Shown here: one piece after another, positions 8,283 to 33,621 of the stretch
Layout of the letters: every line of letters starts with the position of its first letter
How positions within the stretch are numbered: the stretch's first letter is position 1
Source of the DNA: a virus
Taxonomy: Duplodnaviria; Caudoviricetes
Direction: 5' to 3' (one strand)
IMG/VR virus record: IMGVR_UViG_3300020045_001026
Location: 1-34,420 of that record
DNA length: 34,420 bases
The notes under the pieces: generated by a model
Seen by the model: only the letters and a program-made list of their open reading frames with translations
Told to the model about the DNA's origin: nothing
Databases searched by the model: none
Position numbers and translations under genes: made by a program

Positions 8283-8344
8283 TATAAACGGTCTAATAGA
8301 ATGATGAATGGTAATTGGTATTAAATTAATTTAGTTTAGATTTG
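8283..8344 (+). promoter_or_regulatory. Inverted LytTR-like direct repeat plus -7 promoter TAGATTTG
   Basis: Reverse strand reads ACCATTCATC-N10-ACCGTTTATA (20-bp period); TAGATTTG at 8337-8344. Confidence 0.6.
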
Positions 8345-8369: not shown

Positions 8370-8609
8370 ATGACACCAGTAAACAACAAAAGCCTTATTG
8401 CATTTCTATTTGACCAAATGAATAAGCTAGATGAAAATCAAATCACAGTTGAAGATGCTAAAGCACAAGCAAATTTAGCAAAGCAAGTAAACAATGCTAT
8501 GAAGTATGAGTTAGATTTAGTTAAAACGAAAATGGAGTTGACCGAATTTAACAAGACTAATACTGAAAAGATTGAATTAAGAAATGTTGAATCTAAAAAC
8601 TTTGACTGA
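8370..8609 (+). CDS. Hypothetical helical protein
   Basis: 79-aa ORF with A-rich start; resembles small phage proteins often found upstream of HNH genes. Confidence 0.7.
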   Translation: MTPVNNKSLIAFLFDQMNKLDENQITVEDAKAQANLAKQVNNAMKYELDLVKTKMELTEFNKTNTEKIELRNVESKNFD

Positions 8610-9019
8610 TGACTTATAAAGTAACTCAAAAGGACTATGTTTTTTATTTAGTAGATAAGAAAAAGAGTTCGGGTTTAACAAAGTATGAACTTGAATCTTT
8701 AGGATTACTTATTCAAGGAACGGTTAAACAATATATTGAAAACGAAGTTATGGTTTCGGATTCTAAAACTTATGAATGTTTAGTAATTGGATGCTATTAT
8801 TGTTTAGTTAAAGAATCAAGTATTCATTTAGACTTTAAGAAATATAATAAGCAGTATAAAAAGTTTATAAAAGATAATCCTAAATACGAAAGCCAAGCTA
8901 CTGAATTATACAATGCTAATATGAATATTTACGCTAGGTTTTATAATTGCTCGGTACAATGTTTATTTAGTGATTTTTCAAGGACTAGAGGATTTATAAA
9001 AAAATTACATAAACATTGA
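8609..9019 (+). CDS. Hypothetical protein
   Basis: 136-aa AT-rich ORF, TGATG-coupled to the previous gene. Confidence 0.65.
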   Translation: MTYKVTQKDYVFYLVDKKKSSGLTKYELESLGLLIQGTVKQYIENEVMVSDSKTYECLVIGCYYCLVKESSIHLDFKKYNKQYKKFIKDNPKYESQATELYNANMNIYARFYNCSVQCLFSDFSRTRGFIKKLHKH

Positions 9020-9020
9020 T

Positions 9021-9239
9021 ATGAAAAAACTACATGAACAATTATCTAAATTAGGAACTGTTGAAGTGTTAAAAAAAGGTAATGTTTTTACTTTATTAAT
9101 GACTGGGGAAGGTTTCTATAATTGGACAAAAGTAGATGCTGTAAATATGTTAGTTGTAAGTAGTGTCGGTATGGAATATCCTGTTATTGAAGTGTTGAAA
9201 AATGAAGATAATTGGTTATTGTTAATTCTTAATAAATAA
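9021..9239 (+). CDS. Hypothetical protein
   Basis: 72-aa ORF continuing the operon. Confidence 0.6.
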   Translation: MKKLHEQLSKLGTVEVLKKGNVFTLLMTGEGFYNWTKVDAVNMLVVSSVGMEYPVIEVLKNEDNWLLLILNK

Positions 9240-9290
9240 TGAAACTTAAACATTTATTGCTTATATTAGCGTTTAACTTATTATGTTGGT

Positions 9291-10160
9291 ATGCGATACT
9301 TAAACTTATCCTCTGACGATTACGCGAATATGAGCCATGAGAACGCTAGTGCACTTCGGTCTATTGGTATTCATTGTGATGACTTTGCCATGTATAACCA
9401 TCCGTTTGGATATGCTACTCAATCGAAGCTAATTAGACTAGAAGATATTAGGGAGTTAAGCAAGAACTATGATGTTGTTCAGATATTCCATTCAGACGAA
9501 CGTATATACAAGCAAGTACAGAAGCATCCTAAAGTTGTAGTGTATCATACAGGAACGAGATATAGACAGAATCCAAGCTATTACAATAACGTATTTAAAG
9601 ATTGTATTAACCTTACGGATCAATGTGAGTTTATTCCATTGGGCAACATGAGATACATTGCGCCACATACAGCATTAAGCGGTGTACCTAAACGTCAAGA
9701 TGGTAAACTTATCATAGGTCACTATCCAAGCAATGCTGATGTAAAAGGAACGGATGCAATACTTACTATGCTTGAACCATTCTTTGATGACTTCGAGATT
9801 AGGATTGATACTACTAAGGTAGCACATGAAGAACAACTTAAACGGATGTCAGAGTGCCACGTGTACATAGAACTGTTTGCAACCGAGCAACAAGGTAAGC
9901 CGTATGGTTGTCATGGAGTAACTGCGTTTGAGAGTGCTGCATTAGGATGCTTTACAGTAACTCAGAACATACACCCCGAAGTATATCATAAGGAGTACGG
10001 TGCGTGTTATTTTCACTTAGCGAATGACCGTGATAGTTTTATTCGTACATTTGAAGAGTTAAGGAATGCTGATAGGAATCTATTAACTACTCCTAGTGGT
10101 TTTTACTTTAACCATAATATAGAATCAACAGGATATAAAATTTTAGAATTAACGAGATGA
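9291..10160 (+). CDS. GT-B fold (GT4-like) glycosyltransferase
   Basis: IGHYPSNADVKGT and HGVTAFESAALG resemble GT-B donor-binding motifs; -7-like TATATTAG at 9262-9269. Confidence 0.75.
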   Translation: MRYLNLSSDDYANMSHENASALRSIGIHCDDFAMYNHPFGYATQSKLIRLEDIRELSKNYDVVQIFHSDERIYKQVQKHPKVVVYHTGTRYRQNPSYYNNVFKDCINLTDQCEFIPLGNMRYIAPHTALSGVPKRQDGKLIIGHYPSNADVKGTDAILTMLEPFFDDFEIRIDTTKVAHEEQLKRMSECHVYIELFATEQQGKPYGCHGVTAFESAALGCFTVTQNIHPEVYHKEYGACYFHLANDRDSFIRTFEELRNADRNLLTTPSGFYFNHNIESTGYKILELTR

Positions 10161-10693
10161 AAGCCGACAAACAACAATGGATAGATGCTACTAAGAACCT
10201 AAAGGAACGTAGAGCATTAGCAGGGCATAACGATGATAACAGAAACTTAGATAATCCAATTAGAGATTACAAACTACATTTACAAAAGTGTGGCTTCGGA
10301 AAGTCAGTATTAGATGTTGGATGTGGCTCACAGTTTCTTAGGACTTGTTTACCTGACAATGTTAAGTACATGGGTTTAGATGCTTTCCCTGTTGCTAATA
10401 CTAACACCTTCGATATGGCTATTGAAGAAGTTAACTGGAAAGATAAATCAGTTGATACAATCTGTGCATTCGCAGTACTCGATAATTGTTTAGACTTCGA
10501 TAAGGCTTGTCAGAATATGAAGCGATTAGCCAAGAAGAACGTTATCATCCTAACAGGAATTGGAATCGAAGTAGATAAGTACCATACATTCAAGTTAGAA
10601 CACGAAGATTTCAAGCGTAACTTTTCCGATATGAGCCAAACGCATTACGAAGAGTTAGCACCTAAAGTATGGTTGATATGTTACAGCCACTAG
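10157..10693 (+). CDS. Class I SAM-dependent methyltransferase
   Basis: Motif I VLDVGCGS, YMGLD, DTICAFAVLDN. Confidence 0.85.
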   Translation: MKADKQQWIDATKNLKERRALAGHNDDNRNLDNPIRDYKLHLQKCGFGKSVLDVGCGSQFLRTCLPDNVKYMGLDAFPVANTNTFDMAIEEVNWKDKSVDTICAFAVLDNCLDFDKACQNMKRLAKKNVIILTGIGIEVDKYHTFKLEHEDFKRNFSDMSQTHYEELAPKVWLICYSH

Positions 10694-11901
10694 TCACTAT
10701 AATTATTCCGTACAAAACTGATCGTGGTTACTTAGATGTTGCCATTGAATCGGTGCGTAAACAAACTTACCCTAACATTGAACTAATCATTCAACAAGGC
10801 GATAAGTCAGTTAGTGCGAATATCAATGATGGAATAAGAAAAGCTAAAGGTGAATACATTAAATACTTATGTGAAGATGATTACCTAACACCTAACTCAA
10901 TAGCTGATAGTGTAAAAGCTATGCAAGGCTTTGACTTCATTCATGGTGTATCTTATAACATCAAAGGTAAGGCTATTGAAACACAAGTGCCACGCTTGAA
11001 GTACCCTAGCCTGTCTGATATGCTAATCGGTAACGTTATTCATGGTGGTACTTTAATGTATCGTAAAGATGTATTCGATAAGGTAGGTCTATTCAATGAA
11101 GATTTAACTTGCGCTGAAGAGTATGAGTTTAACCTACGTTGCTTACGTTATGGACTTAAGTTAGGTTATACCGATAGAATATTATACAACTATCGTAGAC
11201 ATGACGAACAGAAAAGTCTAGGTAAAGGAATCGACCAACAAGCAAGGGCAAAGAAGATACAAGCTATTAAAGATAGTGTTGCACCATTAAAGATTGTGGT
11301 ATGTATGGCAACTTATGGAGGTAGAGATATTAAACCAACTCTTAATTCATTGAAAGGTCAAGCCGATGTTATACGAATCTATGACAATGCTAATCGAAGT
11401 GAGGATTTAACTGACTTAGGTAAGTTCTACTTTCTTCAGGAGTACACCGAGCCAATCTACTACTTAACAGTTGATGATGATATAATCTATCCACCAACTT
11501 ACGTTAGAGATATGGTTAGAGCGATTGACTTACATAAGACTATCGTAACGCATCATGGTCGTAAGCTAACTCGTAAGGGTATAAGTTATTATAAAGGTCA
11601 TAATCAGTATGCTTATAATAAAAGAGTTGGGGGTATAATAAAGATAGATGTTGCAGGAACTGGGGTTTGTGGATTCAGAACGGATTACTTTAATCCTTTA
11701 GAGGTGTGTAAGTCGGAACACCACAAGATGAGTGATTTAGTATTTAGCTTAGAAGCAAGAAAGCAAGGTAAACTAATCACCTTGCTTCCACATAACTCTA
11801 ACTACTTTAAAACGATTCAATACTCTAATACTATCTTTAATGAGTTCTTAGAGAATGATAGTGTACAGACTACTTTAGCGGATGAGATACTTGGTTTATA
11901 G
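10678..11901 (+). CDS. Two-domain GT-A glycosyltransferase (GT2 plus second GT-A domain)
   Basis: N-terminal VTIIIPY...YIKYLCEDD...EEYEFNLR; C-terminal YLTVDDDIIYP...VAGTG; start at 10678 preferred over 10669. Confidence 0.85.
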   Translation: MLQPLVTIIIPYKTDRGYLDVAIESVRKQTYPNIELIIQQGDKSVSANINDGIRKAKGEYIKYLCEDDYLTPNSIADSVKAMQGFDFIHGVSYNIKGKAIETQVPRLKYPSLSDMLIGNVIHGGTLMYRKDVFDKVGLFNEDLTCAEEYEFNLRCLRYGLKLGYTDRILYNYRRHDEQKSLGKGIDQQARAKKIQAIKDSVAPLKIVVCMATYGGRDIKPTLNSLKGQADVIRIYDNANRSEDLTDLGKFYFLQEYTEPIYYLTVDDDIIYPPTYVRDMVRAIDLHKTIVTHHGRKLTRKGISYYKGHNQYAYNKRVGGIIKIDVAGTGVCGFRTDYFNPLEVCKSEHHKMSDLVFSLEARKQGKLITLLPHNSNYFKTIQYSNTIFNEFLENDSVQTTLADEILGL

Positions 11902-12082
11902 ATTTAAGCCTTTCAATTACATCTTCATACTTTTCTTTTAAATGAAAATCAATATTATTTTTTAACGCAACTTTTGTTGAAAGTTCGTCACGTTTTACAA
12001 AATAAATAACTTCCATTAAATCCAAACAAACCATGTTTTGTAAGTTACCGCATAGTTTAAATTCTATAAATTGCTTTGTCAT
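11870..12082 (-). CDS. Small protein, FlbD/half-LytTR-like pattern
   Basis: LDLMEVIYF...TKVALKNN.DFHLKEKYEDVIERL resembles the FlbD-like pattern. Confidence 0.5.
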   Translation of the reverse strand: MTKQFIEFKLCGNLQNMVCLDLMEVIYFVKRDELSTKVALKNNIDFHLKEKYEDVIERLKSINQVSHPLK

Positions 12083-22454: not shown

Positions 22455-22618
22455 CTACTCATAGAAGTTAGTTTTTCAAGTTAGGTTTAAGGTGGCTATT
22501 CTCGTTTAAGTATGCGTACACTCGGGCTAAGACAAATAGTCACCTTTTTTACAATCAAATAGTTTAAACGCGGGAACGTCAACTATTTTAAACCCTCATC
22601 ATTCGGTGGGGGTTTTTT
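22455..22618 (+). ncRNA. Putative structured small RNA
   Basis: -7-like TACATTCG at 22447-22454, three hairpins with two T-tailed ends, no long ORF. Confidence 0.5.
22590..22618 (+). terminator. Intrinsic terminator
   Basis: AAACCCTCATC-ATTC-GGTGGGGGTTT hairpin plus T run. Confidence 0.85.
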
Positions 22619-22623
22619 AATTT

Positions 22624-22693
22624 ACCACTCACCCTAATAATTCACCGTTCATCACATTTCTTAATTTTATTCGGAATAGATGATGTAGTTTAG
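22624..22693 (+). promoter_or_regulatory. LytTR-like direct repeat plus -7 element
   Basis: ACCACTCAC at 22624, ACCGTTCATCACA at 22644, TAGTTTAG at 22686. Confidence 0.7.
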
Positions 22694-22709
22694 TAGAAAA
22701 TTAAACGAC

Positions 22710-22934
22710 ATGAAACAACTAATTAACACAGCGCATCAACTTTACAAGGAGTTAGAGTTATGGCAAGGAATGATGAGTAACGCTTACGAACTGTTATTAA
22801 TTGTAAGAGAGGGTAAGCAATTCTGTTCAGATGATGTACAAAGCGCATCTAAGCAATACCACGAATGTAGACTTAATACACTTCGTGTACAAGAATCAAT
22901 CGACAAAGTAATTAATGAAATTAAAGCTAAGTAA
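22710..22934 (+). CDS. Hypothetical coiled-coil protein
   Basis: 74-aa first ORF after the promoter. Confidence 0.65.
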   Translation: MKQLINTAHQLYKELELWQGMMSNAYELLLIVREGKQFCSDDVQSASKQYHECRLNTLRVQESIDKVINEIKAK

Positions 22935-22935
22935 G

Positions 22936-23856
22936 ATGAAAAAGAAAGATTTTTTTGAAGAACAATTAGGTAAAACTTTTGGAGAGTTTTATAAGGAATG
23001 TGATAACAAAAAAGAAGGTTACTATTCAAAGAGTGCTTCGAGTGGTAACTCTTCAAAGAGTGCTTCGAGTGGTTACTCTTCAACGAGTGCTTCGAGTGGT
23101 GACTATTCAACGAGTGCTTCGAGTGGTAACTCTTCAACGAGTGCTTCGAGTGGTTACTCTTCAACGAGTGCTTCGAGTGGTAACTCTTCAACGAGTGCTT
23201 CGAGTGGTTACTATTCAAAGAGTGCTTCGAGTGGTTACTATTCAAAGAGTGCTTCGAGTGGTGACTATTCAAAGAGTGCTTCGAGTGGTGACTATTCTTC
23301 TGCTACTGCAAACGGATTCTTTGCAACGGTTAAAGGTGCAGGTGTTGGATGCTTAATATCTGCGGTTGAGTTCAATAAAGACTGTCAACCAATAGGAGTA
23401 GCTTGGGGTATTATTGGTGTTGATGTTGAAGCTAATAAAGAATACATTGCACATAATGGTAAGTTAAAAGAATATATCATAGTTGATGGCATTCGTTCTA
23501 TCTTATTAAGTCGCAAGGCTAATGTAATGAAGGTACTTACTAATTCATTTGAAACGTTATATATAGTTACTAAAGATGGTTATTCAGCGCATGGTAAAAC
23601 GATTAAACAAGCGAATGAAGATGTTAACTTTAAACTAATATCAGAGAAACTAAAGAACGAACCAATCTTAGAAGATACGATTGTAACGGTTAAGCATTAC
23701 AGATTAATTACAGGTGCTTGTGAGGTTGGTGTAAAGTCATGGATGCAAGAGAATAAGATTGAAGAGGGTTTAACGGCTAAGGAGTTGTTACCTGTCTTAG
23801 AACGAACTAATGCGTATGGAGTTTCTAAATTTAAATCATTGATATCATGGGGTTAA
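22936..23856 (+). CDS. Protein with 9-aa Ser/Gly repeats and a YRLITGAC C-terminal domain
   Basis: Ten SASSG units; start at 22936 follows the previous stop. Confidence 0.8.
   Translation: MKKKDFFEEQLGKTFGEFYKECDNKKEGYYSKSASSGNSSKSASSGYSSTSASSGDYSTSASSGNSSTSASSGYSSTSASSGNSSTSASSGYYSKSASSGYYSKSASSGDYSKSASSGDYSSATANGFFATVKGAGVGCLISAVEFNKDCQPIGVAWGIIGVDVEANKEYIAHNGKLKEYIIVDGIRSILLSRKANVMKVLTNSFETLYIVTKDGYSAHGKTIKQANEDVNFKLISEKLKNEPILEDTIVTVKHYRLITGACEVGVKSWMQENKIEEGLTAKELLPVLERTNAYGVSKFKSLISWG
23017..23297 (+). repeat. 27-bp coding tandem repeat, about 10.4 copies
   Basis: GGT (A/T/G)AC T(C/A)T TCA A(A/C)G AGT GCT TCG AGT. Confidence 0.97.
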
Positions 23857-24011
23857 AACAATGGCTAAACAAGTCGACCAAGCCAACGACAAAAGAGAAT
23901 AGTTATACGCCACCTAAATACGTGTGTGTAAGTAGTTCAGTAGATGAAGGTCAAGGAATGACTTTTAATGAGAAAGCAAATCATATATTTAAACAAATAA
24001 AGAAATGCTAA
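23847..24011 (+). CDS. Hypothetical 54-aa protein
   Basis: Hand-translated MGLKQWLNK...FKQIKKC; fills the gap and overlaps both neighbours. Confidence 0.5.
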   Translation: MGLKQWLNKSTKPTTKENSYTPPKYVCVSSSVDEGQGMTFNEKANHIFKQIKKC

Positions 24012-24199
24012 TAGGCGACAGAAAGTACTCACAGTTCTACAAGCAATGGGGAACGGTACAACGGATTAAGGACTTATCAGAAGATTACCCCGTAGTGATT
24101 AGCTTCGATAATGGTTCAGTAGATTACTATACACTAGATGGTAAGATGTTTATAGAGTTTGATGTAAAAGATTTGGAAGATGAAGCGGAAGATATTTAG
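24005..24199 (+). CDS. Hypothetical small beta protein
   Basis: 64 aa; WGTV...DYPV...YTLDGK. Confidence 0.65.
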   Translation: MLIGDRKYSQFYKQWGTVQRIKDLSEDYPVVISFDNGSVDYYTLDGKMFIEFDVKDLEDEAEDI

Positions 24200-24551
24200 A
24201 GAGTTAACCCACAAGCAGAAGGAACAAATTACAGTTGAGTTTCATCTTAGAACGCTTAGTTCAATGGCTCGTAAGTTTAACGTATCTAAAACAACTATTC
24301 ACTTAGTGGTTACAGATTACTTTAAGAAGAAACGAATAGATGTGACAGGCTTAACAGTAACCGAGATAATGGCTAAATACAATTGTACTATGTCGAATGC
24401 ACTTAGGTTACGAATGAAGTTTGAACAACCTATGTACGGATCGGTTTACTTCGGTCAAGTTAAAGAAGCTATCTACTCGAATGAAAACGAGATGATGATA
24501 CCTAGTTACTCGGTTAAAGATTTGAAAGGGTGGGAGGCTCAACAGGTATGA
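24180..24551 (+). CDS. HTH DNA-binding protein
   Basis: TLSSMARKFNVSKTTIH and a second HTH-like segment TVTEIMAKYNCTMS. Confidence 0.7.
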   Translation: MKRKIFRELTHKQKEQITVEFHLRTLSSMARKFNVSKTTIHLVVTDYFKKKRIDVTGLTVTEIMAKYNCTMSNALRLRMKFEQPMYGSVYFGQVKEAIYSNENEMMIPSYSVKDLKGWEAQQV

Positions 24552-24706
24552 AACAAGTATTTATTAAGCGTTACGGATGGTTAAAAGTATTAGAGCAAAG
24601 CGGTAATTATTCTCTTTGCTTATTTGATAACGGTTCAAAGATTTGTTTTAACACAAGTGGATTTGAATTTAGAAATGTAGAATCACAATTAAAAATAGAA
24701 TTATGA
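24548..24706 (+). CDS. Hypothetical 52-aa protein
   Basis: Hand-translated MKQVFIKRYGW...LKIEL; ATGA overlaps on both sides. Confidence 0.55.
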   Translation: MKQVFIKRYGWLKVLEQSGNYSLCLFDNGSKICFNTSGFEFRNVESQLKIEL

Positions 24707-24960
24707 GTAGAAAAAAGAAAATAATAGAACATCAGATAGTTGATATTTCTGATATTTTTGTAGTTGTAAATAAAGAAAACTTTGAAAGATTTATGATGGA
24801 TTTCATGTTGTTTGTACATCAAATAGGTGACGTAAAAGAAAAATATCCAGAGTTAAAAGTTCAGGGCATGACTTGGAAAGATGATGGTGTTCATGAAATA
24901 ACAGGCTACTCAATGAATGGTAATAAGATTGTATTTAAGAAAAAGACTACTCTATTATGA
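24703..24960 (+). CDS. Hypothetical protein
   Basis: 85-aa coupled ORF. Confidence 0.6.
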   Translation: MSRKKKIIEHQIVDISDIFVVVNKENFERFMMDFMLFVHQIGDVKEKYPELKVQGMTWKDDGVHEITGYSMNGNKIVFKKKTTLL

Positions 24961-25181
24961 CCCACGAACAGAAACTCCTAGCATCACAACTCCTTCCAGT
25001 ACTTGCAGACTTCTTAGAAGATGTACCGATGACACAACTAGCGAAGATGAAACGAAATAGACTAGTTCAAGAGATACGTTCATTCGATGCGTTCCTGATG
25101 GTAGGTGCTGATATCGAAGCAATGGAACAACAGATAGAACTACAACAAGCGTTTAGACAATGGTTAAAAGAGATGATATGA
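24957..25181 (+). CDS. Hypothetical protein
   Basis: 74-aa coupled ORF. Confidence 0.65.
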   Translation: MTHEQKLLASQLLPVLADFLEDVPMTQLAKMKRNRLVQEIRSFDAFLMVGADIEAMEQQIELQQAFRQWLKEMI

Positions 25182-25843
25182 AGATACTAAATTTATACGC
25201 TTGTTTAGGCGGTAACAGATACAAGTGGGATGAAGTAGCTAATGAAGCTGGAATTGAAATAGAAGTAACTGCGGTGGAGTTAGACGAAGAAGCTGCAAGA
25301 TTATATCAAGAACGATTCCCAAACGATATAGTAATAGTTGCAGATGCACACCAATACTTATTAGACCATTTTAAAGAGTTTGATTTTATTTGGAGTTCAC
25401 CACCTTGTCCTACACATTCTAGCATAAGGATGAGTCAAAAAAATAGAGTTACATTTGAAAATAAATATCCCGACATGAAATTATATGAAGAGATATTACT
25501 TTTAAAATATCAATTTAACGGTAAGTATTTAGTTGAAAATGTAATCCCGTATTATGAGCCATTAATTTCAGCTCAAAAAAGAGGTAGGCATTTATATTGG
25601 AGTAACTTTATTTTACCGAATAACATTGATAGGGAAGAAAGTAAAGGTATAGTTGGGAGTGCTAAAAATGAATTAGATTTATTATGTAAGCTACACGATT
25701 ACGACTTTAGAAAATATAAAGGTGAACAATCAACTATTAAAATGGCTCGTAACCTGGTAGACTATGAAGCAGGTAGAACTATCTTTGAAACTGCTTTAGG
25801 TATCATTCGCAAATCAGATGTTAGGCAGACTGAGTTATTTTAA
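25178..25843 (+). CDS. C5-cytosine DNA methyltransferase-like protein
   Basis: LNLYACLGG (motif I variant), SSPPC (motif IV), VENV (motif VI). Confidence 0.85.
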   Translation: MKILNLYACLGGNRYKWDEVANEAGIEIEVTAVELDEEAARLYQERFPNDIVIVADAHQYLLDHFKEFDFIWSSPPCPTHSSIRMSQKNRVTFENKYPDMKLYEEILLLKYQFNGKYLVENVIPYYEPLISAQKRGRHLYWSNFILPNNIDREESKGIVGSAKNELDLLCKLHDYDFRKYKGEQSTIKMARNLVDYEAGRTIFETALGIIRKSDVRQTELF

Positions 25844-25911
25844 CCACTCATCTACTCCAATAACCGTTCATCACAATTACTAGAATAAAGTAAACTAATT
25901 GATTAACTTTG
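25843..25911 (+). promoter_or_regulatory. LytTR-like direct repeat plus -7 element
   Basis: ACCACTCATC at 25843, ACCGTTCATCACA at 25863, TAACTTTG at 25904. Confidence 0.75.
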
Positions 25912-25927
25912 AATAAAATTAATGACT

Positions 25928-26449
25928 ATGAAAACACATTGGAAGAAAAACAACGATTCACGCTATATTAGCGGTGAAGATTTAAAGTTTGGCGAATCAC
26001 TTGGAAAAGGATTACGACCTGAAATGGTAGTGACTATTGCAGCTTTTAAAGATGCTGAATCATTTGACCAAAAAGAACAAGAAAAGATTATTAAAACAGG
26101 TTTAGACTTGTTAGAATATCCTAGTGGCAAACCATTACATAAACCTGTATTGTTAAATAACAAGAATGGTGAGTTCTTTCAAAAAGAATTTGGTAGTGAG
26201 TTCCTAGAAGATTGGGTTGGTAAGCCAGTTATTATGTTTGCTATGGTAGATAAACGTCACGGTTATGTAGTTAGGTTTAAGAAGTTCTTTCAACAGCAAC
26301 AAGTTTCAGACGTACAGGCAATGATTGAATTAGCTAAATGCACGACATTAGACGAACTTAAAACAACTTGGGACTTACTTACACAAGCTGAGAAGAATCT
26401 ACCTACTGTGATGGCTAAGAAAGAAACTCTTAAATCTACGTTGAAATGA
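25928..26449 (+). CDS. Putative recombination/ssDNA-annealing protein
   Basis: Upstream of exonuclease and SSB genes; KTHWKK N-terminus. Confidence 0.55.
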   Translation: MKTHWKKNNDSRYISGEDLKFGESLGKGLRPEMVVTIAAFKDAESFDQKEQEKIIKTGLDLLEYPSGKPLHKPVLLNNKNGEFFQKEFGSEFLEDWVGKPVIMFAMVDKRHGYVVRFKKFFQQQQVSDVQAMIELAKCTTLDELKTTWDLLTQAEKNLPTVMAKKETLKSTLK

Positions 26450-26619
26450 GAAATATCCAAATCATTCAGTACATGATTAGTGTAGTTGAAAACTACATCT
26501 ATGAAAAGAAGCGTGTAAGCGTTACTATTAATCCTATTAGCATATTATCTTCACAAGACCAATTAGATAAGCTAATAGACGCTTATAACCATATTAAAAC
26601 TCAATACCCAAACGTATGA
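26446..26619 (+). CDS. Hypothetical 57-aa protein
   Basis: Hand-translated MRNIQIIQY...TQYPNV; ATGA overlaps on both sides. Confidence 0.55.
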   Translation: MRNIQIIQYMISVVENYIYEKKRVSVTINPISILSSQDQLDKLIDAYNHIKTQYPNV

Positions 26620-27263
26620 TTATCCACAACGATCCACAAGGCTCAATCGAATGGCACGAATCGAGATGGGCTAAGATAACATCTACTAGAGCATCACAAC
26701 TCTTTGTTAAGTCTGATAATCTATTCTTAGAACTGCTTGGTGAGTATACTGAGCAGTTCCAGGTAGAAGATAACTACGAATCTTACGACATGATTAGGGG
26801 TAAAGAGTTAGAACCAGAAGCACGTTACAAAGTTAGTCAATACACAGGATTAGAATTTAATGAAGTTGGATTAGCTATATCTACTTCATGTCCTATTATC
26901 GGAATCTCAATGGATGGTTTAACAGATGACCATACTAAAGCGTGTGAGATTAAATGCCCTAAAGCTAAGAAGCATTTACAAACGTGCTTAGAAGGTGAAA
27001 TACCATTAGACAATTTAGATCAATGCGTTCATTATTTTACGGTCAATCCTAAACTCGAATCGTTATTTTTCGTATCTTACAGACCTGAAAGTATTAAACC
27101 ATTATTCGTTAAAGAACTTAAGCGTACCGATTCAGTTAACTTAGGAACTAAAGCGAAACCAATATTAAAGACAGTACAAGAATGGGTTGAGTTAGCACTT
27201 GCCGAAGCTGAAGCAATCAATGATAAACTAAACAAGGCAGTAATTAAATTAACGGAGATATAA
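26616..27263 (+). CDS. YqaJ/lambda-exonuclease family nuclease
   Basis: QGSIEWHESR, ITST, RGKELEPEAR, SMDGL, EIKCP. Confidence 0.9.
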   Translation: MIIHNDPQGSIEWHESRWAKITSTRASQLFVKSDNLFLELLGEYTEQFQVEDNYESYDMIRGKELEPEARYKVSQYTGLEFNEVGLAISTSCPIIGISMDGLTDDHTKACEIKCPKAKKHLQTCLEGEIPLDNLDQCVHYFTVNPKLESLFFVSYRPESIKPLFVKELKRTDSVNLGTKAKPILKTVQEWVELALAEAEAINDKLNKAVIKLTEI

Positions 27264-27265
27264 CA

Positions 27266-27625
27266 ATGGAAGTAAAAGGAAAAGTAAAGGTAGTTAACGC
27301 TACTGAAGAAGTAGGAACTAAAGGATTTAAGAAGCGTTTATTAGTTGTTGAAACTGAAGAAACTTACCCACAATCAATACCAGTTGAATTTGTACAGGAT
27401 AAATGTAATTTATTAGATTACATTCAAGTAGGTCAAGATGTAACGGTACAGATTAATTTAAGAGGTTCAGAGTATAACGGGCGTTATTATGTACAGTTAC
27501 AGGGTTGGAAAATTGAAGCAAGTAGCGAATATGCTACAACTCCGAACCCAGTAAGTAATATGCAACCACCTTTACCAACGTCAACACAAGGCGAACCGTT
27601 ACCTGAAGATGATCTACCCTTCTGA
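27266..27625 (+). CDS. Single-stranded DNA-binding protein, DUF3127-like
   Basis: FKKRLLVVET..YPQ, INLRG, GWKIE and acidic tail EDDLPF. Confidence 0.88.
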   Translation: MEVKGKVKVVNATEEVGTKGFKKRLLVVETEETYPQSIPVEFVQDKCNLLDYIQVGQDVTVQINLRGSEYNGRYYVQLQGWKIEASSEYATTPNPVSNMQPPLPTSTQGEPLPEDDLPF

Positions 27626-27668
27626 GATAATCAAAACGTCAAGCTATTAATTAGCACATTTAATTTAG

Positions 27669-27695
27669 AAGCCCCTCCATTGTGAGGGGTTTTTT
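27669..27695 (+). terminator. Intrinsic terminator
   Basis: AGCCCCTC-CATTGT-GAGGGGTT hairpin plus T run. Confidence 0.85.
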
Positions 27696-27930
27696 ACTTT
27701 CCGCCTGTTTCTGACTGACTTCTGCCTATGTTTTTCTTAGTCGTAGCAAGGGATAGACATAAAGTCATAAAATATTCCTATACTATATTTTCTATATATA
27801 CTATATAAACACATATTATCAACTTTTTTAAAAAAGCCTAAAAACTTTCCGACTTTCCGCCTAATCTACGTCAAACCCTTATAAACACTAAGAAAAAAGT
27901 CAGGCATAAAACAGTCGTAAAAGTCATAAA
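27696..27930. other. Putative replication origin
   Basis: Repeated ACTTTCCG and AAAGTC elements in inverted arms around an AT-rich core, between SSB and helicase. Confidence 0.7.
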
Positions 27931-27990
27931 TTAAATTTATTTTTACTATTTTGTTGTTTGTATTGAATTAATAACTATATTTACTTCGTT

Positions 27991-28080
27991 GTTCGATACC
28001 ACATTATAGAACTAAAGGACTTATTTAGCCCTTATTTGAAAATCGAGGTGGTATCCGATGAGTAGAATAGGGGCTTTTTT
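27991..28080 (+). promoter_or_regulatory. Structured leader/attenuator with complementary loops
   Basis: GATACCAC (27995-28002) complements GTGGTATC (28048-28055); stem AGCCCTTATT/AATAGGGGCT plus T run. Confidence 0.65.
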
Positions 28081-28095
28081 ATTAAATTATTTATT

Positions 28096-28308
28096 ATGTT
28101 TTTAGAGATTATCAAAGAAGAATTTAAGTTGTATAATATTTCATACGACATTCAAGGTAAACACAAGATTGTAATTACATTTAAAAGATGTATTCAATAT
28201 CGAAAGATTATGAAGTCTTTAAGATTGCATGGGGTAGCAACTCACTATGAATTATTTCCAACTCATGATAAAGCAGTTATAACTTTCTTAACATTTGAAG
28301 AAATATGA
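28096..28308 (+). CDS. Hypothetical protein
   Basis: 70-aa ORF coupled to the helicase gene. Confidence 0.55.
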   Translation: MFLEIIKEEFKLYNISYDIQGKHKIVITFKRCIQYRKIMKSLRLHGVATHYELFPTHDKAVITFLTFEEI

Positions 28309-29687
28309 ATGAGGATAATTCAAGACCGTTCTGGAGTGAATCACATGATGGTAAAATTTCATTAGATAACTACGATTTTAAAACATTCTTAGGTTGTAAT
28401 AACTTCTTCAAGAACAAACCAAACGAAGAAAGTTCATTTAATATCATTCACAAGGATGGTATATTCTTAAAGATTCGTGATGAAATAGATGTAAAGGATT
28501 TCGTATTGAACTACATTGAAAAGAATCAACTAGGAAAACAAGTCTATAATCTAATGACTGGCAAGGCTTCGATATTTACTAGACAATATTTGTCAATGCT
28601 GAATAGTGAAGAAATTAAAGTACTTAGAGATACTAATGATACTGCATATCTATTATATCAGAATGGAGTAGTTGAAGTAAATAAAGAAACTGCAATACTA
28701 AAACCTTACTCACATTATGGGTTGCATATTTGGGAAGACCAAGTGATTAAACGTAACTACATAGATTCAGACCATCACGAATCAGAGTACCGTACTTTCA
28801 TTTGGAAGATAGCAGGTGAAGACGTTGATAGGTATAATACGTTTCAAACGGTTATCGGGTACTTACTTCATTCTTATAATGTAGGAGGTGACAATAAAGC
28901 TATAATTCTAAACGATGAATTGATTAGTGACGATCCAAATGGAAGAAGTGGTAAAGGTTTATTTTGTCACGCATTGAAACATCTAAAGAAGGTACAATCA
29001 CTTAACGGAAAATCATTTAGATTCGATGCACCATTTCCATATCAAGGAGTGAAAACAGATTGCCAGGTTTTAGTTTGGGATGATGTTAAAAAGAACTTTG
29101 ACTTTGAGCAGTTGTTTAGTGTTATTACTGAAGGTATTGAGATTACTTATAAAGGCAAGGACACTATTAAGCTATCAATAGAAGATTCACCTAAGATAAT
29201 TATCACAACCAACTACACTATCAAAGGTAAAGGCGGTTCACACGAAGCAAGAAGATTCGAGGTAGAGTTATCGCCTTTCTTTAATGCTGAACATACACCT
29301 ATTGACTACTTTGGTCACAAGTTGTTTGAGAATTGGGATGATAAAGAATGGGCAAGATTCGACTGCTACATGATTGAGTGCTTAAAGAAATACTTAGATA
29401 AAGGATTGTTACCATATAAAGCCGTTAGCTTACCTTATAAACGTTTGGAAGCAGATATTACCAAAGAACTATTTGAGTGCATTGCATCGGTTAAAAAGGA
29501 TGAATGGGTTAATTCTGATGAGTTTTATGATATGTATGTAATGAATATACCTAAACGTTGGAACGCTAAAACAAAGAACGCAGTAACTAAGGATTTGAAA
29601 AGATACTGTGAGTTTTACGGATTGGATTATGAAGAGTTAAGAACGAACGGAGTAAAGAAGTTTATAATTAAAAATAGAGTGATATGA
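28305..29687 (+). CDS. SF3 (D5/P4-like) replicative helicase
   Basis: Walker A GRSGKG, Walker B VWDDV, motif C IIITTN, ARRF. Confidence 0.88.
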   Translation: MNEDNSRPFWSESHDGKISLDNYDFKTFLGCNNFFKNKPNEESSFNIIHKDGIFLKIRDEIDVKDFVLNYIEKNQLGKQVYNLMTGKASIFTRQYLSMLNSEEIKVLRDTNDTAYLLYQNGVVEVNKETAILKPYSHYGLHIWEDQVIKRNYIDSDHHESEYRTFIWKIAGEDVDRYNTFQTVIGYLLHSYNVGGDNKAIILNDELISDDPNGRSGKGLFCHALKHLKKVQSLNGKSFRFDAPFPYQGVKTDCQVLVWDDVKKNFDFEQLFSVITEGIEITYKGKDTIKLSIEDSPKIIITTNYTIKGKGGSHEARRFEVELSPFFNAEHTPIDYFGHKLFENWDDKEWARFDCYMIECLKKYLDKGLLPYKAVSLPYKRLEADITKELFECIASVKKDEWVNSDEFYDMYVMNIPKRWNAKTKNAVTKDLKRYCEFYGLDYEELRTNGVKKFIIKNRVI

Positions 29688-29920
29688 AATCAGCGGTTGA
29701 ATATTTAGTAAAAGAATTTAGTGATATATTAGGTGTATTAAATACTACGCCTATGCAAGATTTATTACTTGTAGATGCATTTAATAAAGCTAAGGACATG
29801 GAGAAAGAAAATAATATTTTTCCAGTAAACAATGCAAAATGTAGTCATAAAAGAATAAGTAATTGCAGAGGTATTGTTTGGTGTAAAGACTGTAAAGAAA
29901 ATTTTTCAAAACCGATATAA
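29684..29920 (+). CDS. Hypothetical protein with Cys/His cluster
   Basis: 78 aa; CSH...CKDC. Confidence 0.6.
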   Translation: MKSAVEYLVKEFSDILGVLNTTPMQDLLLVDAFNKAKDMEKENNIFPVNNAKCSHKRISNCRGIVWCKDCKENFSKPI

Positions 29921-29921
29921 C

Positions 29922-30272
29922 ATGGAAGCACTAGGAAATGCAGACCGAGTATCGACAGGTTTAGGAATGCAAACGATTAAGAGTTTAGTAGATAAGGATG
30001 CTACTTATAAGTTACTCAATCGAACGGAGCAAGATGATGATTTACTACTACGAATCGAAACACAAAAAGCCGAATACGAACTAAGGCAAATCATTAACCG
30101 AACTGAGAAAAGTCTGATTAAGGAACAAGGATTAGACTTGCCTAACCAAGTTAGGATTGATTCAGTACACAAGACTTATAATTCACTGCTATTCATTTGG
30201 CGTAGGATGATGAAACAAAGTGCAAGGATTACCGAATTAGAATTAGAAATTAAACGATTGAAGGGGTTATGA
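29922..30272 (+). CDS. Hypothetical coiled-coil protein
   Basis: Start MEALG at 29922 follows the previous stop. Confidence 0.65.
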   Translation: MEALGNADRVSTGLGMQTIKSLVDKDATYKLLNRTEQDDDLLLRIETQKAEYELRQIINRTEKSLIKEQGLDLPNQVRIDSVHKTYNSLLFIWRRMMKQSARITELELEIKRLKGL

Positions 30273-30601
30273 AATGCACTAAGGTAAAGTTTGGAACTGA
30301 AGCAGATGCAGACTTCTATATTAAGAAACTAGATAAGACTTCTAATAGAAGATTAAAACCTGTTAGAAGTTACCTTTGCCCTATTTGTTGCTCATGGCAC
30401 ATGACTAGCATAAAACAAAATACTAACAACGAAGCAAGACTTCAATTAGAAGTTAATAAATTGAAAGGTAAAATTGAACACTTTGAAAATATGAATCGTA
30501 AACACGCAAGAGATTCTAAGAAACTTCAAGAAAAGTTAACTAAGGTAACTACTGACTTCGAGTTGATGAAAGTTTGTCTAACTATAATTGTAATGAAATG
30601 A
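30269..30601 (+). CDS. Zn-finger plus coiled-coil protein
   Basis: KCTK...YLCPICCSWHMTS. Confidence 0.65.
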   Translation: MKCTKVKFGTEADADFYIKKLDKTSNRRLKPVRSYLCPICCSWHMTSIKQNTNNEARLQLEVNKLKGKIEHFENMNRKHARDSKKLQEKLTKVTTDFELMKVCLTIIVMK

Positions 30602-30813
30602 AAGGAATAATTAACAAAGCTGAAAAGATTGATTGGTGTAAGGTTATGCTAGTTCAATGTGGAAGTACAATAGTATTAACAACAGGTCAACATACTAAAG
30701 AGAAATTTGAAGGCATTAAGATAAACTCATTAACAGAATTGAAATGTGTTAATAGTTGGTCAAAGGCTTATTTCTCTAAAGTTACCGTACCTACTAATGT
30801 TACATTTATATGA
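30598..30813 (+). CDS. Hypothetical protein
   Basis: ATGA-coupled ORF starting MKGII. Confidence 0.5.
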   Translation: MKGIINKAEKIDWCKVMLVQCGSTIVLTTGQHTKEKFEGIKINSLTELKCVNSWSKAYFSKVTVPTNVTFI

Positions 30814-31280
30814 CCAAACAAAACAAACAACGCTTACTAGACCACCACTACAAGCTAATGAGCATAAAGTATCCTAACTTCCCACAACACGCTATACCGA
30901 GTAAGACATGGAGTGATAATAGTGCAAACGGATTGACCAAATGTGTTATTGATCTAATAAACTACGAAGGTTACCAAGCTGAACGGATTAGCACACAAGG
31001 AACGTATGTTGAAGGTGCAAAGATTAAAGTTGGTGAGAATGAACGACAACTCAAAGGCAAGTACATTCCAACACAAGGAACGAAAGGTAGTGCTGATATA
31101 AGCGCAACGATTAGAGGTAGGTCGGTTAAGATTGAGATTAAGTATTTAAAGGATAGGCAGTCAGACGTGCAAAAGGAATACCAAGCGAGCATAGAACGAG
31201 CAGGAGGTATTTACATTATAGTCCGTGACTTCGATGAGTTCGTGGAGTGGTTTGATAATTTTACCACCCATCACGAATAA
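30810..31280 (+). CDS. VRR-NUC-like PD-(D/E)xK nuclease
   Basis: GSADI...KIEIK...DRQSDVQK...AGGIYIIVR. Confidence 0.85.
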   Translation: MTKQNKQRLLDHHYKLMSIKYPNFPQHAIPSKTWSDNSANGLTKCVIDLINYEGYQAERISTQGTYVEGAKIKVGENERQLKGKYIPTQGTKGSADISATIRGRSVKIEIKYLKDRQSDVQKEYQASIERAGGIYIIVRDFDEFVEWFDNFTTHHE

Positions 31281-31331
31281 CAACCGCTTATCACAATTTT
31301 AAATAAGGTATAGAGTAAACGAGTATATTTG
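31263..31331 (+). promoter_or_regulatory. LytTR-like direct repeat plus -7 element
   Basis: ACCACCCATC at 31263, ACCGCTTATCACA at 31283, TATATTTG at 31324. Confidence 0.75.
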
Positions 31332-31347
31332 AATAAAACTAAAGGAT

Positions 31348-31599
31348 ATGACAACACTTAACGGATTCACAGGACTAGAACACTCATTCACTATCTGCTT
31401 AGACGATAGAGATATTGAGGTGTATGATATTGACTATGACTTGTCAGAAGATGAGATTATAATTAACTCAATCGAATGCGATGAGGAGATAGAAGGATTA
31501 GCAGATTTAATGTTATCCTACGTTGACTGGTCAGCAGTTGAGCAAGAAGCACTCGATAACTACAATCAGATGCGAGAGGACGAAATGATGGAGAATTAA
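31348..31599 (+). CDS. Highly acidic small protein
   Basis: 83 aa, rich in Asp/Glu with very few basic residues. Confidence 0.7.
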   Translation: MTTLNGFTGLEHSFTICLDDRDIEVYDIDYDLSEDEIIINSIECDEEIEGLADLMLSYVDWSAVEQEALDNYNQMREDEMMEN

Positions 31600-31609
31600 A
31601 AATAGAGAT

Positions 31610-31951
31610 ATGAATAAAGAAAAAGCAATATTTATAAAGTCATTTAAGACAAAGCGTTTAGATGGTCACTCTATAAGAACAATTTATGCTCTTACAGAAA
31701 CAGGAATTGTCAATATAGAACGTAGAATTTTATCAACAGAATTAAATGATGGGTTTAAACTTATTAGAAACTTTGGTAAATACGTTTATCAGTGTGAAAC
31801 AATGGTATTTAAGTTAGCATCATTTATTGAAATATCTAAAACCGTAGGTCAAAATTTACATAAGCTAGATATTGATAAAATTATTCAATTATCAGATGTT
31901 AGCTTTAGTCCAAATGATAAGTCTAAAGTTCTAATTATAACCGAGCTATGA
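31610..31951 (+). CDS. Hypothetical protein
   Basis: 113-aa AT-rich ORF. Confidence 0.6.
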   Translation: MNKEKAIFIKSFKTKRLDGHSIRTIYALTETGIVNIERRILSTELNDGFKLIRNFGKYVYQCETMVFKLASFIEISKTVGQNLHKLDIDKIIQLSDVSFSPNDKSKVLIITEL

Positions 31952-31993
31952 CCCACGAAAAACACGATATAGCAGTATTCATTGAGAATGAAG

Positions 31994-32224
31994 ATGAAAT
32001 TAACTAAAGGATATAAAACAGGCAAAGCGCAACCGTTATGGATGTGTATTAGGGAAATTAGGATTTGTACTCCTAATGAACTTGGTAAAATATATGATGG
32101 TTACAATGATAAAACATTTGAAGTTGAATATTGGATGTGTATTAAGATTAAGAAAAATTACAATTTCAATATAATGCAAAGAGTTTTTATCAGTAACCCT
32201 ACCCCAACTAGAAGAAATACTTAA
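31994..32224 (+). CDS. Hypothetical protein
   Basis: AT-rich ORF; start uncertain. Confidence 0.45.
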   Translation: MKLTKGYKTGKAQPLWMCIREIRICTPNELGKIYDGYNDKTFEVEYWMCIKIKKNYNFNIMQRVFISNPTPTRRNT

Positions 32225-32236
32225 AAATCAGTAGAG

Positions 32237-32476
32237 ATGGAAAGAGAACTTAAAAAATTAGAAAGAACATATATTTCGTATGAAAAAGCACTTGACGAAT
32301 TAGAGGTTAAAGTTAGGGAATTATGTGATTTTAACGCAAGAGTTACATTTTGTGAAGGAGATAGACATTTATTATTAAATGAAGACACTTCTACGGTTTC
32401 AAGATTTCATTGCTTAAACGGGAAAAGTAATGCTAATAAACTTACAGTAGAAGAACATGAGAATAATTCTTTATAA
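32237..32476 (+). CDS. Hypothetical protein
   Basis: 79-aa ORF. Confidence 0.6.
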   Translation: MERELKKLERTYISYEKALDELEVKVRELCDFNARVTFCEGDRHLLLNEDTSTVSRFHCLNGKSNANKLTVEEHENNSL

Positions 32477-32500
32477 ACAAATCCTTAAAACCGAGAAAGG

Positions 32501-32638
32501 ATGAAAACAGCAAGAAATAACAAGACAAGGAATCGTGACTTAAATCAAACTATGATAATCAGAAGTAGGTTGATGCGTGATTCATTATTTAGATGGTTGT
32601 ATAGACCTTATTGTTCAACTGATACTATTGAACCATGA
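32501..32638 (+). CDS. Hypothetical 45-aa basic protein
   Basis: Hand-translated MKTARNNKTR...TDTIEP. Confidence 0.4.
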   Translation: MKTARNNKTRNRDLNQTMIIRSRLMRDSLFRWLYRPYCSTDTIEP

Positions 32639-32971: not shown

Positions 32972-33152
32972 AGAAGATAGTTTGTTCCAACGATTGATAA
33001 CCTCAACCGAGAAGCAAGACCTTCATAAGATGCAGGTAGTGTTCCGTAAGTATAACCCTACAATTCCTTATGATTGTATGTGTAAACTTCTGAACCGTAA
33101 GATTAAGTCTAAACAGTTCACAGAATGGTATGACAAAGTTAGAAATAGATAA
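32949..33152 (+). CDS. Hypothetical protein
   Basis: 67 aa with CxC. Confidence 0.6.
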   Translation: MTDLLTPEEDSLFQRLITSTEKQDLHKMQVVFRKYNPTIPYDCMCKLLNRKIKSKQFTEWYDKVRNR

Positions 33153-33621
33153 GTACTTCACTGAGAACTACGATCTAATTAATCGTATAGCAACTGCCTT
33201 AACTATTAAGAACGGTAGGAACTATGACCCCACAATATTAGTAGCTGAATCTTATCTACATATCCTTAACATCAAGGATAAGATACTAGACGAAAACCAA
33301 CTACATAGGTTTATCATAGCTAAGATTAGTATTGAATCGTATAAGTCTAAGTCAACTACTAACCTTCTATACTCTGAACGTCACCTCAATATTGATGATA
33401 TACAGATTAATTACGAAGCTATACCGTACACTTTTAATGCGGTTGACCTATACTTAATAGCGGAAAAGGATTCAGTAATGAAATACGCAGCTGAAGCATA
33501 CATAGTAATGGGGCATGATACAGTAAGGAAGTTCAAGGATTACTTTAACATATCCTATAACTCATCCCGACAATTCATTGATAAGATAAAAGAAAACATA
33601 AAGAAGTATGAAAAGATTTAA
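33130..33621 (+). CDS. ECF sigma-like transcription factor
   Basis: Region-2-like N-terminus (ENYDLINRIA...LVAESYLHIL) and C-terminal HTH (TVRKFKDYFNISYNS); upstream of terS. Confidence 0.65.
   Translation: MTKLEIDKYFTENYDLINRIATALTIKNGRNYDPTILVAESYLHILNIKDKILDENQLHRFIIAKISIESYKSKSTTNLLYSERHLNIDDIQINYEAIPYTFNAVDLYLIAEKDSVMKYAAEAYIVMGHDTVRKFKDYFNISYNSSRQFIDKIKENIKKYEKI

Follow-up and report, generated by a model that had tools for sequence, protein, structure and literature searches.

LytTR-type regulators are described as reading 9-bp repeats that lie 11–13 bp apart, as in the BrsR operator of Streptococcus mutans, ACCACTTAT-12 bp-ACCGCTTAT; in the LytTR regulatory systems (LRS) of this species the repeats lie 4–11 bp upstream of the core promoter and serve activation as well as autoregulation, 11-bp spacers being described as a minority (passages of PMC6193735). 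Here we analyse a complete circular phage record of 34,420 nucleotides (nt), IMGVR_UViG_3300020045_001026 (34.4 kb with a 121-nt terminal overlap; “the window” in what follows, meaning the whole stretch), in which pairs of such boxes stand before promoters of non-structural operons. As computed here, the pairs have a rigid 20-bp period, are helically phased with a −7 box, go with a missing −33 element and are conserved across unrelated phages. The boxed phages have no detectable LytTR gene or shared regulator, and the same pair with the same offset stands before one conserved bacterial operon of a LytS-type kinase and a LytTR regulator. It is highly probable that a host LytTR protein reads the phage boxes.

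The half-site of the BrsR and HdrR operators is nearly identical to the phage box, whereas the period is 21 for BrsR and a rigid 20 here (PMC6193735, in part). All four pairs of the window consist of 9-bp repeats with an 11-bp gap, within the described range, and in three forward pairs, but not in a fourth, inverted one, the repeats lie directly 5′ of the core promoter at a conserved distance. Whereas the candidate here, a receiver-LytTR protein, is paired with a PF06580 kinase, the LRS regulators have no receiver and are joined by a membrane inhibitor; moreover, the S. mutans regulator lies in the same operon, whereas these sites occur in a phage that encodes no detected regulator (passages of PMC6193735). 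The preliminary description of this DNA had likened the boxes to AlgR sites. The AlgR core CCGTTCGTC is one base from CCGTTCATC, and algD-RB3, which works at −45 in the opposite orientation, offers a precedent for the inverted pair; AlgR sites are, however, described as single and at variable distance, whereas the phage boxes are tandem with a fixed offset (passages of PMC4064291). The window holds rigid tandem pairs and not single CCGTTCGTC-like sites at variable distance. As an analogy, the BrsR operator is closer to the phage boxes than the AlgR sites, whose likeness, true of the core, is the weaker one.

A further parallel is provided by CtrA, an OmpR-type regulator. The CtrA sites of alphaproteobacterial phages (“lytic deferment”) are likewise host response-regulator sites in promoters of unrelated phages; binding and regulation were shown there, whereas for the sites described here they are predicted, and the two cases differ in regulator family, host phylum and cue, which is the cell cycle there and, as proposed here, envelope stress (passages of PMC9437464, in which host-regulator capture by phages is described for CtrA, Spo0A and LexA). 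The Spo0A/phi29 family also comprises lytic phages with host response-regulator sites, but Spo0A suppresses the lytic cycle while the layout here points to activation (PMC2731898 and PMC9437464, in part). Phage-encoded LytTR proteins are mentioned in a review, in passages that do not mention host LytTR sites in phage promoters (PMC11945551), and a literature search in which subscription journals were poorly covered returned no report of such sites or of Bacteroidota cases. The operator itself is of a known kind; new here are the kinase–regulator pair, the 20-bp promoter geometry, the split of −33 elements and the envelope-type targets.

Box pairs in phase with promoters that lack a −33 element

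The three forward pairs of the window consist of ACCRYTYATC half-sites with a 20-bp period (Table 1). Re-examination of the positions confirmed the four pairs and the period given in the preliminary description, as well as its spacing of 41–42 bp between the second half-site and the −7 box, measured here as 41, 41 and 42 bp, the box at 22686 having one mismatch. The −7/−33 consensus in Bacteroidota is TAnnTTTG/TTTG (PMC2483708, in part), and TTG at −33 is found in none of the three forward promoters. Two small corrections apply: the first half-site at 31263 overlaps the last codons of the open reading frame (ORF) 30810–31280, and the half-site at 25843 begins on the final stop-codon base of ORF 25160–25843.

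The forward pairs occupy the identical three gene junctions in genomes G012 and G022. They head the non-structural arm, preceding small genes and a methyltransferase, an exonuclease and a single-strand binding protein (SSB), and small genes towards a sigma-like ORF and the small terminase, respectively; a terminator-like hairpin likely insulates box pair 1 from the lysis genes. The pattern ACCRY-N15-ACCRYTYAT matches the window four times, compared with a mean of 0.02 in 100 shuffles, but because it was derived from the window sites themselves, the independent evidence is the pair count in 20 genomes and the pooled viral contexts described below.

The fourth pair is inverted. It borders a variable cassette on the left and adjoins a promoter that has a TTG of its own; read leftwards, it has no −7 box in phase. 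Its location and period were correctly given in the preliminary description, but it lacks activator geometry, standing on the minus strand while TAGATTTG is on the plus strand. Of the four operons held there to be activated by a host LytTR factor, only three therefore have sites of activator geometry, although a host LytTR protein is still the best reading. The pair could not be tied to gene 8370, as it lies directly upstream in 0 of 38 homolog loci. It is likely a remnant of some divergent cassette, or else it modulates the promoter with its own −33. The cassette is absent between the same flanking genes in G004, and close-relative metagenome contigs (run X2) barely cover it. The variable stretch (window 8370–12082, with methyl- and glycosyltransferase genes) sits between two convergent structural operons.

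The position of the inverted pair, right next to the TTG at the 8337 promoter, would suit a host regulator that represses or silences, a brake of the Spo0A/phi29 kind, and some targets are repressed by AlgR (passages of PMC4064291). Because the forward sites lie upstream of the core promoter and not over it, in helical phase and with the −33 missing, activation is the favoured layout, and a brake is highly improbable.

The same design in other phages

An exact-pattern search of viral sequences yielded 130 loci, and a free-spacing pattern (periods 18–23) yielded 121, from which approximately 330 stretches are estimated; the period was 20 in 95 of 100 distinct contexts of the free-spacing scan. 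In 165 pooled viral contexts, 125 of the 131 strict −7 boxes lay 41–43 bp (66), 51 bp (6) or 61–64 bp (53) from the pair, which are steps of one helical turn. The −33 element splits these promoters: TTTG was present in 5 of 62 near promoters versus 32 of 42 distal ones, and TTG in 15 of 62 and 38 of 42 (shuffle expectation 5.9 and 7.3). This split is as expected of an activator that would replace the upstream contact when close and boost a full promoter when far.

In the window and 19 relatives, in each of which at least one pair had been picked by the first search, 58 of 58 pairs had period 20 although periods 18–24 and up to two mismatches were allowed. Of these, 54 lay outside ORFs (Markov control: 0), so that the motif is rarer in coding regions than outside them; equal frequency in both was the outcome that the preliminary description had named as speaking against its proposal. 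Shared proteins split the 20 genomes into groups of 14 and 5 and G015, which shares no protein cluster with the other 19; as with CtrA, the sites are concentrated in promoter regions and occur in unrelated phage lineages, here three groups, which may have gained them independently or by swapping early modules. Relatives found by their capsid, and not picked by motif, carried pairs in 9 of 25 records and in 5 of the 7 near-complete ones. The design was not found in any cultured phage searched.

Many pair copies stand behind terminators where cassettes join, and the inverted copy lies at the edge of one cassette. The repeats might accordingly be promoter modules that hitch-hike on recombination, or they might serve as signals for recombination or replication and play no part in transcription. 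Against this stand the viral contexts, in which spacers and flanks diverge while half-sites, period and −7 phase persist, and the presence of the design in lineages sharing few or no proteins and in bacterial chromosomes; we give this explanation almost no credence.

Boxed small-gene cassettes also lie inside the structural region of G005, G017, G019, G021 and G023, some in opposite orientation and mostly with distal boxes (51 or 61–63 bp). A few phages carry period-21 pairs with the −7 box at 52 bp. In a provirus (L343 in G456), a period-20 pair precedes a TATAAT-type promoter, which suggests that the design may extend outside Bacteroidota.

Search for a phage-encoded partner

That no LytTR gene is evident, as initially described, was borne out by every search. 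PF04397 had no match in the six-frame translation of the window, LytTR had none among its 62 ORFs (Pfam, PHROGs), and PF04397 was found in 0 of 50 long boxed phage records, including 0 of 17 that are at least 90% complete. The proposed search with a LytTR hidden Markov model (HMM), built from 78 host domains and run without filters on 25 genomes, gave nothing significant (best E 0.32–0.88). A phage LytTR gene was therefore rejected as partner, and the receiver-less LytTR gene with a membrane inhibitor that follows the repeats in LRS was likewise not found, there being no LytTR gene in the window or the 50 boxed records. Pfam, PHROGs and the six-frame PF04397 search recognised no integrase, repressor family or LytTR domain among the window genes. 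The widely shared protein clusters of the 20 boxed genomes are structural, non-structural clusters reaching at most 9 of 20, and neither these clusters nor the LytTR HMM revealed a cognate regulator gene common to boxed phages.

A phage protein could nevertheless bind the boxes, be it the helix-turn-helix (HTH) protein at 24180, the sigma-like protein at 33130, a divergent LytTR protein or one from a co-infecting phage; most window ORFs belong to no known family (Pfam/PHROGs), and sigma-like proteins precede the terminase in several relatives. However, the HTH family occurs in 3 of 20 genomes and no non-structural cluster in more than 9, the LytTR searches of boxed phages were blank, the boxes stand 5′ of promoter elements for the host primary sigma factor, and a binder encoded by phages would leave the same sites next to LytS/LytTR genes of bacterial chromosomes unaccounted for. 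Altogether, we consider a phage-encoded binder very unlikely.

The individual candidates fared no better. The HTH protein, suggested in the preliminary description as a possible binder, was rejected as a general one because just 3 of the 20 boxed genomes encode it; it is also missing from some metagenome contigs, a weak observation made at 85% likeness. The idea that ORF 31610 might be a hidden LytTR protein was dismissed (no usable Atlas match, a low-confidence model and a cluster private to the window), and so was ORF 33130, whose poor, low-confidence helical model had no fold match at E ≤ 0.001. The latter is a candidate late-gene regulator, as a lead only; sigma-like genes upstream of the small terminase were seen by eye in several relatives.

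The box pair at a bacterial kinase–regulator operon

The host of the window phage is inferred to be a member of the Bacteroidota because of the TAnnTTTG boxes and weak matches of its terminase (33% to phages of Bacteroides and Flavobacterium) and its capsid (24.5% to phages of Nonlabens). Strict scanning of the collected genomes returned 60 loci. ORFs were scanned at 28 of these; at six, a LytS-type kinase (PF06580) lay no more than 2.5 kb away, and four resembled phage contigs in bins. Within the Bacteroidota, the phylum of G051, a period-20 pair was present in 12 of 401 genomes (two control matches), and a LytTR gene lay within approximately 3 kb in 7 of 11 non-seed matches, so that the same word is found at LytTR loci of the likely host group. 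Motif scans of the kind proposed in the preliminary description thus recovered the boxes both in related phages and in Bacteroidota genomes, near LytS/LytTR loci.

The reverse test started from one regulator subfamily (80 metagenome and 11 genome loci), of which 52 distinct ones extended far enough 5′ of the kinase to be used. Period 20 was that of the best pair in 39 of these 52 operon promoters; within the kinase gene this held for 2 of 52, and among shuffles for 22 of 260. A −7 box lay 41–44 bp past the pair 29 times. At other LytTR loci (15 genomes; 61 of 78 with a usable upstream region), period 20 was found in 7 of 61, and a pair score of at least 19 at period 20 in none of the 61 versus 17 of the 52 kinase–regulator operons.

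The candidate regulator, encoded in an operon with a LytS-type kinase, carries the motifs DDERLAR and VKDG[DE][KR]CWF, and its source names are Sediminibacterium, Chitinophagaceae, Parafilimonas and Panacibacter, from which we call the family of G056 Chitinophagaceae-like; 33 of 46 genomes of this family have the ortholog. BtsS/BtsR and YpdA/YpdB of Escherichia coli are LytS/LytTR-type pairs like the candidate, but Pfam finds only PF06580 in the candidate kinase and, unlike in Bts/Ypd, the candidate targets are not pyruvate transporters (PMC5552118, in part). The best NCBIfam model for the candidate regulator is BtsR, with 182–189 bits; as this is below the 246-bit cut-off, the candidate is not BtsR.

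In the kinase–regulator promoters L605–L613 the −7 box ends 3–21 nt before the kinase start codon, which suggests a leaderless or very short-leader mRNA. Period-20 pairs also lie between tandem units of a CAAX protease and a LytS kinase in two gammaproteobacterial genomes (L143, L180). Period-21 and period-19 variants (L133, L139, L141, L153, L345, L373, L398) were found in high-GC Flavobacteriales bins, before PadR-PspC and a kinase–regulator operon.

A predicted envelope-type regulon

The full phage-type promoter pattern had 12 matches in 11 of the 46 genomes of the Chitinophagaceae-like family (control 0), eight before the kinase–regulator operon, assigned by Pfam in four cases and by sequence likeness in four, and four before an OMP_b-brl_3 gene. 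Near-consensus pairs gave 44 matches in 30 of 81 genomes versus 10 control matches. Among 30 loci read, one per genome, eight pairs preceded PadR-PspC, nine a CarboxypepD_reg/barrel gene, and one each Band-7, MacB/FtsX and an RND pump; five lay inside ORFs and five had no Pfam assignment. PspC, PadR-HAAS and Band-7 are partners of the phage-shock envelope response (passages of PMC11237479), and the box set of this family looks like an envelope-stress regulon. PadR-PspC was rejected as a phylum-wide target (0 of 11 loci) and holds only in this family and a few other genomes.

A palindrome, GTACT..N..AGTAC, separates the LytTR pair from the −7 box at barrel genes (L610, L614, L615, L616, L682, L688, L695), and the same palindrome stands before padR genes in the PadR loci sample. 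The barrel genes may be under dual control by a LytTR activator and a PadR repressor.

Proposed mechanism and competing evidence

We propose that the tandem sites are operators for a host LytTR response regulator, which would recruit host RNA polymerase to promoters that have a −7 but no −33 element. A phosphorylated dimer would occupy both half-sites in head-to-tail order, reaching to within a few bases of the vacant −33, and would substitute for the missing contact, switching on probable early operons; in other phages, the distal copies, placed two turns farther upstream, would strengthen a promoter that is complete. The operons behind the boxes are probably early ones, activation, timing and signal being inferred from the sequence. 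Gating on a host signal and use of basal activator would look alike in such sequence. The regulator of the conserved LytS/LytTR subfamily is a reasonably likely activator of the phage promoters. Since near-consensus boxes precede PadR-PspC, barrel, Band-7 and efflux genes, the pair may sense envelope stress and so provide the cue, at somewhat less than even chances. A more doubtful extension is that adsorption or DNA entry stresses the envelope, that the LytS/LytTR pair becomes phosphorylated and fires the −33-less early promoters, so that the phage-shock response would start the infection, and that a box period of 20 versus 21 would track host range.

Several observations weigh against this proposal. 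In the phages, a strict −7 box is missing from 36 of the 165 pooled contexts, and the contexts are not independent, many being close kin, so that their counts overstate independence; two of the seven near-complete capsid relatives have no period-20 boxes and use plain −7 promoters, one of them with a single period-21 pair. In bacteria, the strict matches include simple repeats and divide by period into 24 at 21, 21 at 20 and 7 at 19; the −7 box lies at 41–42 bp in only 5 of the 30 family loci, and a period-20 pair was upstream in 0 of 11 PadR loci of a phylum-wide sample. The weight matrix used for the operon promoters and the other LytTR loci was built by hand on the phage consensus and loosened once the PadR sample had been seen, and some control regions may miss the true promoter of the operon. 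The regulator was present in 11 of 71 sampled Bacteroidota genomes; no ortholog was detected in bin G053, from which two boxed phage contigs come (best identity 36%; the bin may be incomplete), or in G051, which has a perfectly phased box and may also be incomplete, while G054 has the ortholog with no pair before it. Finally, boxes also flank distant LytTR proteins (L293, L294, L295, L298, L299), including a membrane-bound one, so that several regulators may read the word.

Boxes at such distant regulators, and the two ortholog-less genomes G053 and G051, would fit an alternative in which one or several other LytTR paralogs read the boxes, or in which the phage uses a basal activator constitutively and independently of any signal. 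The phage boxes, moreover, score 26.6–29.1, whereas the boxes of the host operon itself average 17.8, a difference that would be in keeping with scarce activator. As only 7 of 61 other LytTR loci carry the period-20 signal upstream, and as the full promoter pattern had no match in five ortholog-less genomes, a small sample, we judge this alternative unlikely.

If the host LytS/LytTR pair does drive these promoters, the early programme of a widespread uncultured phage group would depend on a single signalling pair of the host, a limit on host range in addition to receptors would be explained, and a conserved Bacteroidota two-component system would gain a predicted operator and regulon. Speculatively, this dependence could be why the boxed phages have no cultured representative.

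Genes and further features of the window

Table 1. Positions of the boxes, promoters, operons and single genes of the window
Feature	Position	Strand	Description	Remark
Inverted box pair	8283..8312	−	ACCATTCATC / ACCGTTTATA, period 20	left edge of variable cassette
Promoter	8315..8344	+	own TTG, 19-bp spacer, TAGATTTG at 8337	abutted by inverted pair
Variable cassette	8370..11901	+	small genes, SAM methyltransferase, glycosyltransferase	Pfam/PHROGs
Terminator-like hairpin	22590..22622	+	intrinsic-terminator-like hairpin and T run	directly 5′ of box pair 1
Box pair 1	22624..22655	+	ACCACTCACC / ACCGTTCATCAC, period 20	same place in G012 and G022
−7-like box 1	22686..22693	+	TAGTTTAG, one mismatch from TAnnTTTG, no −33 TTG	42 bp from second half-site (22644)
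Operon 1	22710..25843	+	small unknown genes, Ser-repeat protein (22915), HTH-like (24180), C5 DNA methyltransferase-like (25160)	Pfam/PHROGs
HTH-like protein	24180..24551	+		rejected as general box binder
Box pair 2	25843..25874	+	ACCACTCATC / ACCGTTCATCAC, period 20	
−7 box 2	25904..25911	+	TAACTTTG, no −33 TTG	41 bp from second half-site (25863)
Operon 2	25922..27625	+	unknown 175-aa protein, YqaJ-type exonuclease (26616), DUF3127 single-strand binding protein (27266)	Pfam/PHROGs
Box pair 3	31263..31294	+	ACCACCCATC / ACCGCTTATCAC, period 20	
−7 box 3	31324..31331	+	TATATTTG, no −33 TTG	41 bp from second half-site (31283)
Operon 3	31348..32638	+	small unknown genes	ORF list, Pfam
Sigma-like protein	33130..33621	+	all-helical, resembling ECF sigma factors	Atlas features 0.95 to sigma clusters; pLDDT 50.6

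The gene products recognised by Pfam and PHROGs are a terminase, a portal protein, an endolysin, the YqaJ exonuclease, the DUF3127 SSB and methyltransferases. ORF 25922, the first of operon 2, had no relatives in viral_contigs, and operon 3 may be read through to ORF 33130 and the small terminase. A sigma-70 promoter scan is uninformative for this phylum.

Between operon 2 and ORF 28096 (window 27625–28098), an AT-rich, origin-like gap with inverted repeats is followed by a hairpin leader (z −1.64) that has no Rfam match, the Rfam search being blank; the same stretch contains a promoter-like TATATTTA with no box pair. ORF 22915 contains eleven overlapping copies at 27-nt spacing (window 22963–23382) that encode Ser-rich 9-residue units, and some metagenome contigs skip the whole gene.

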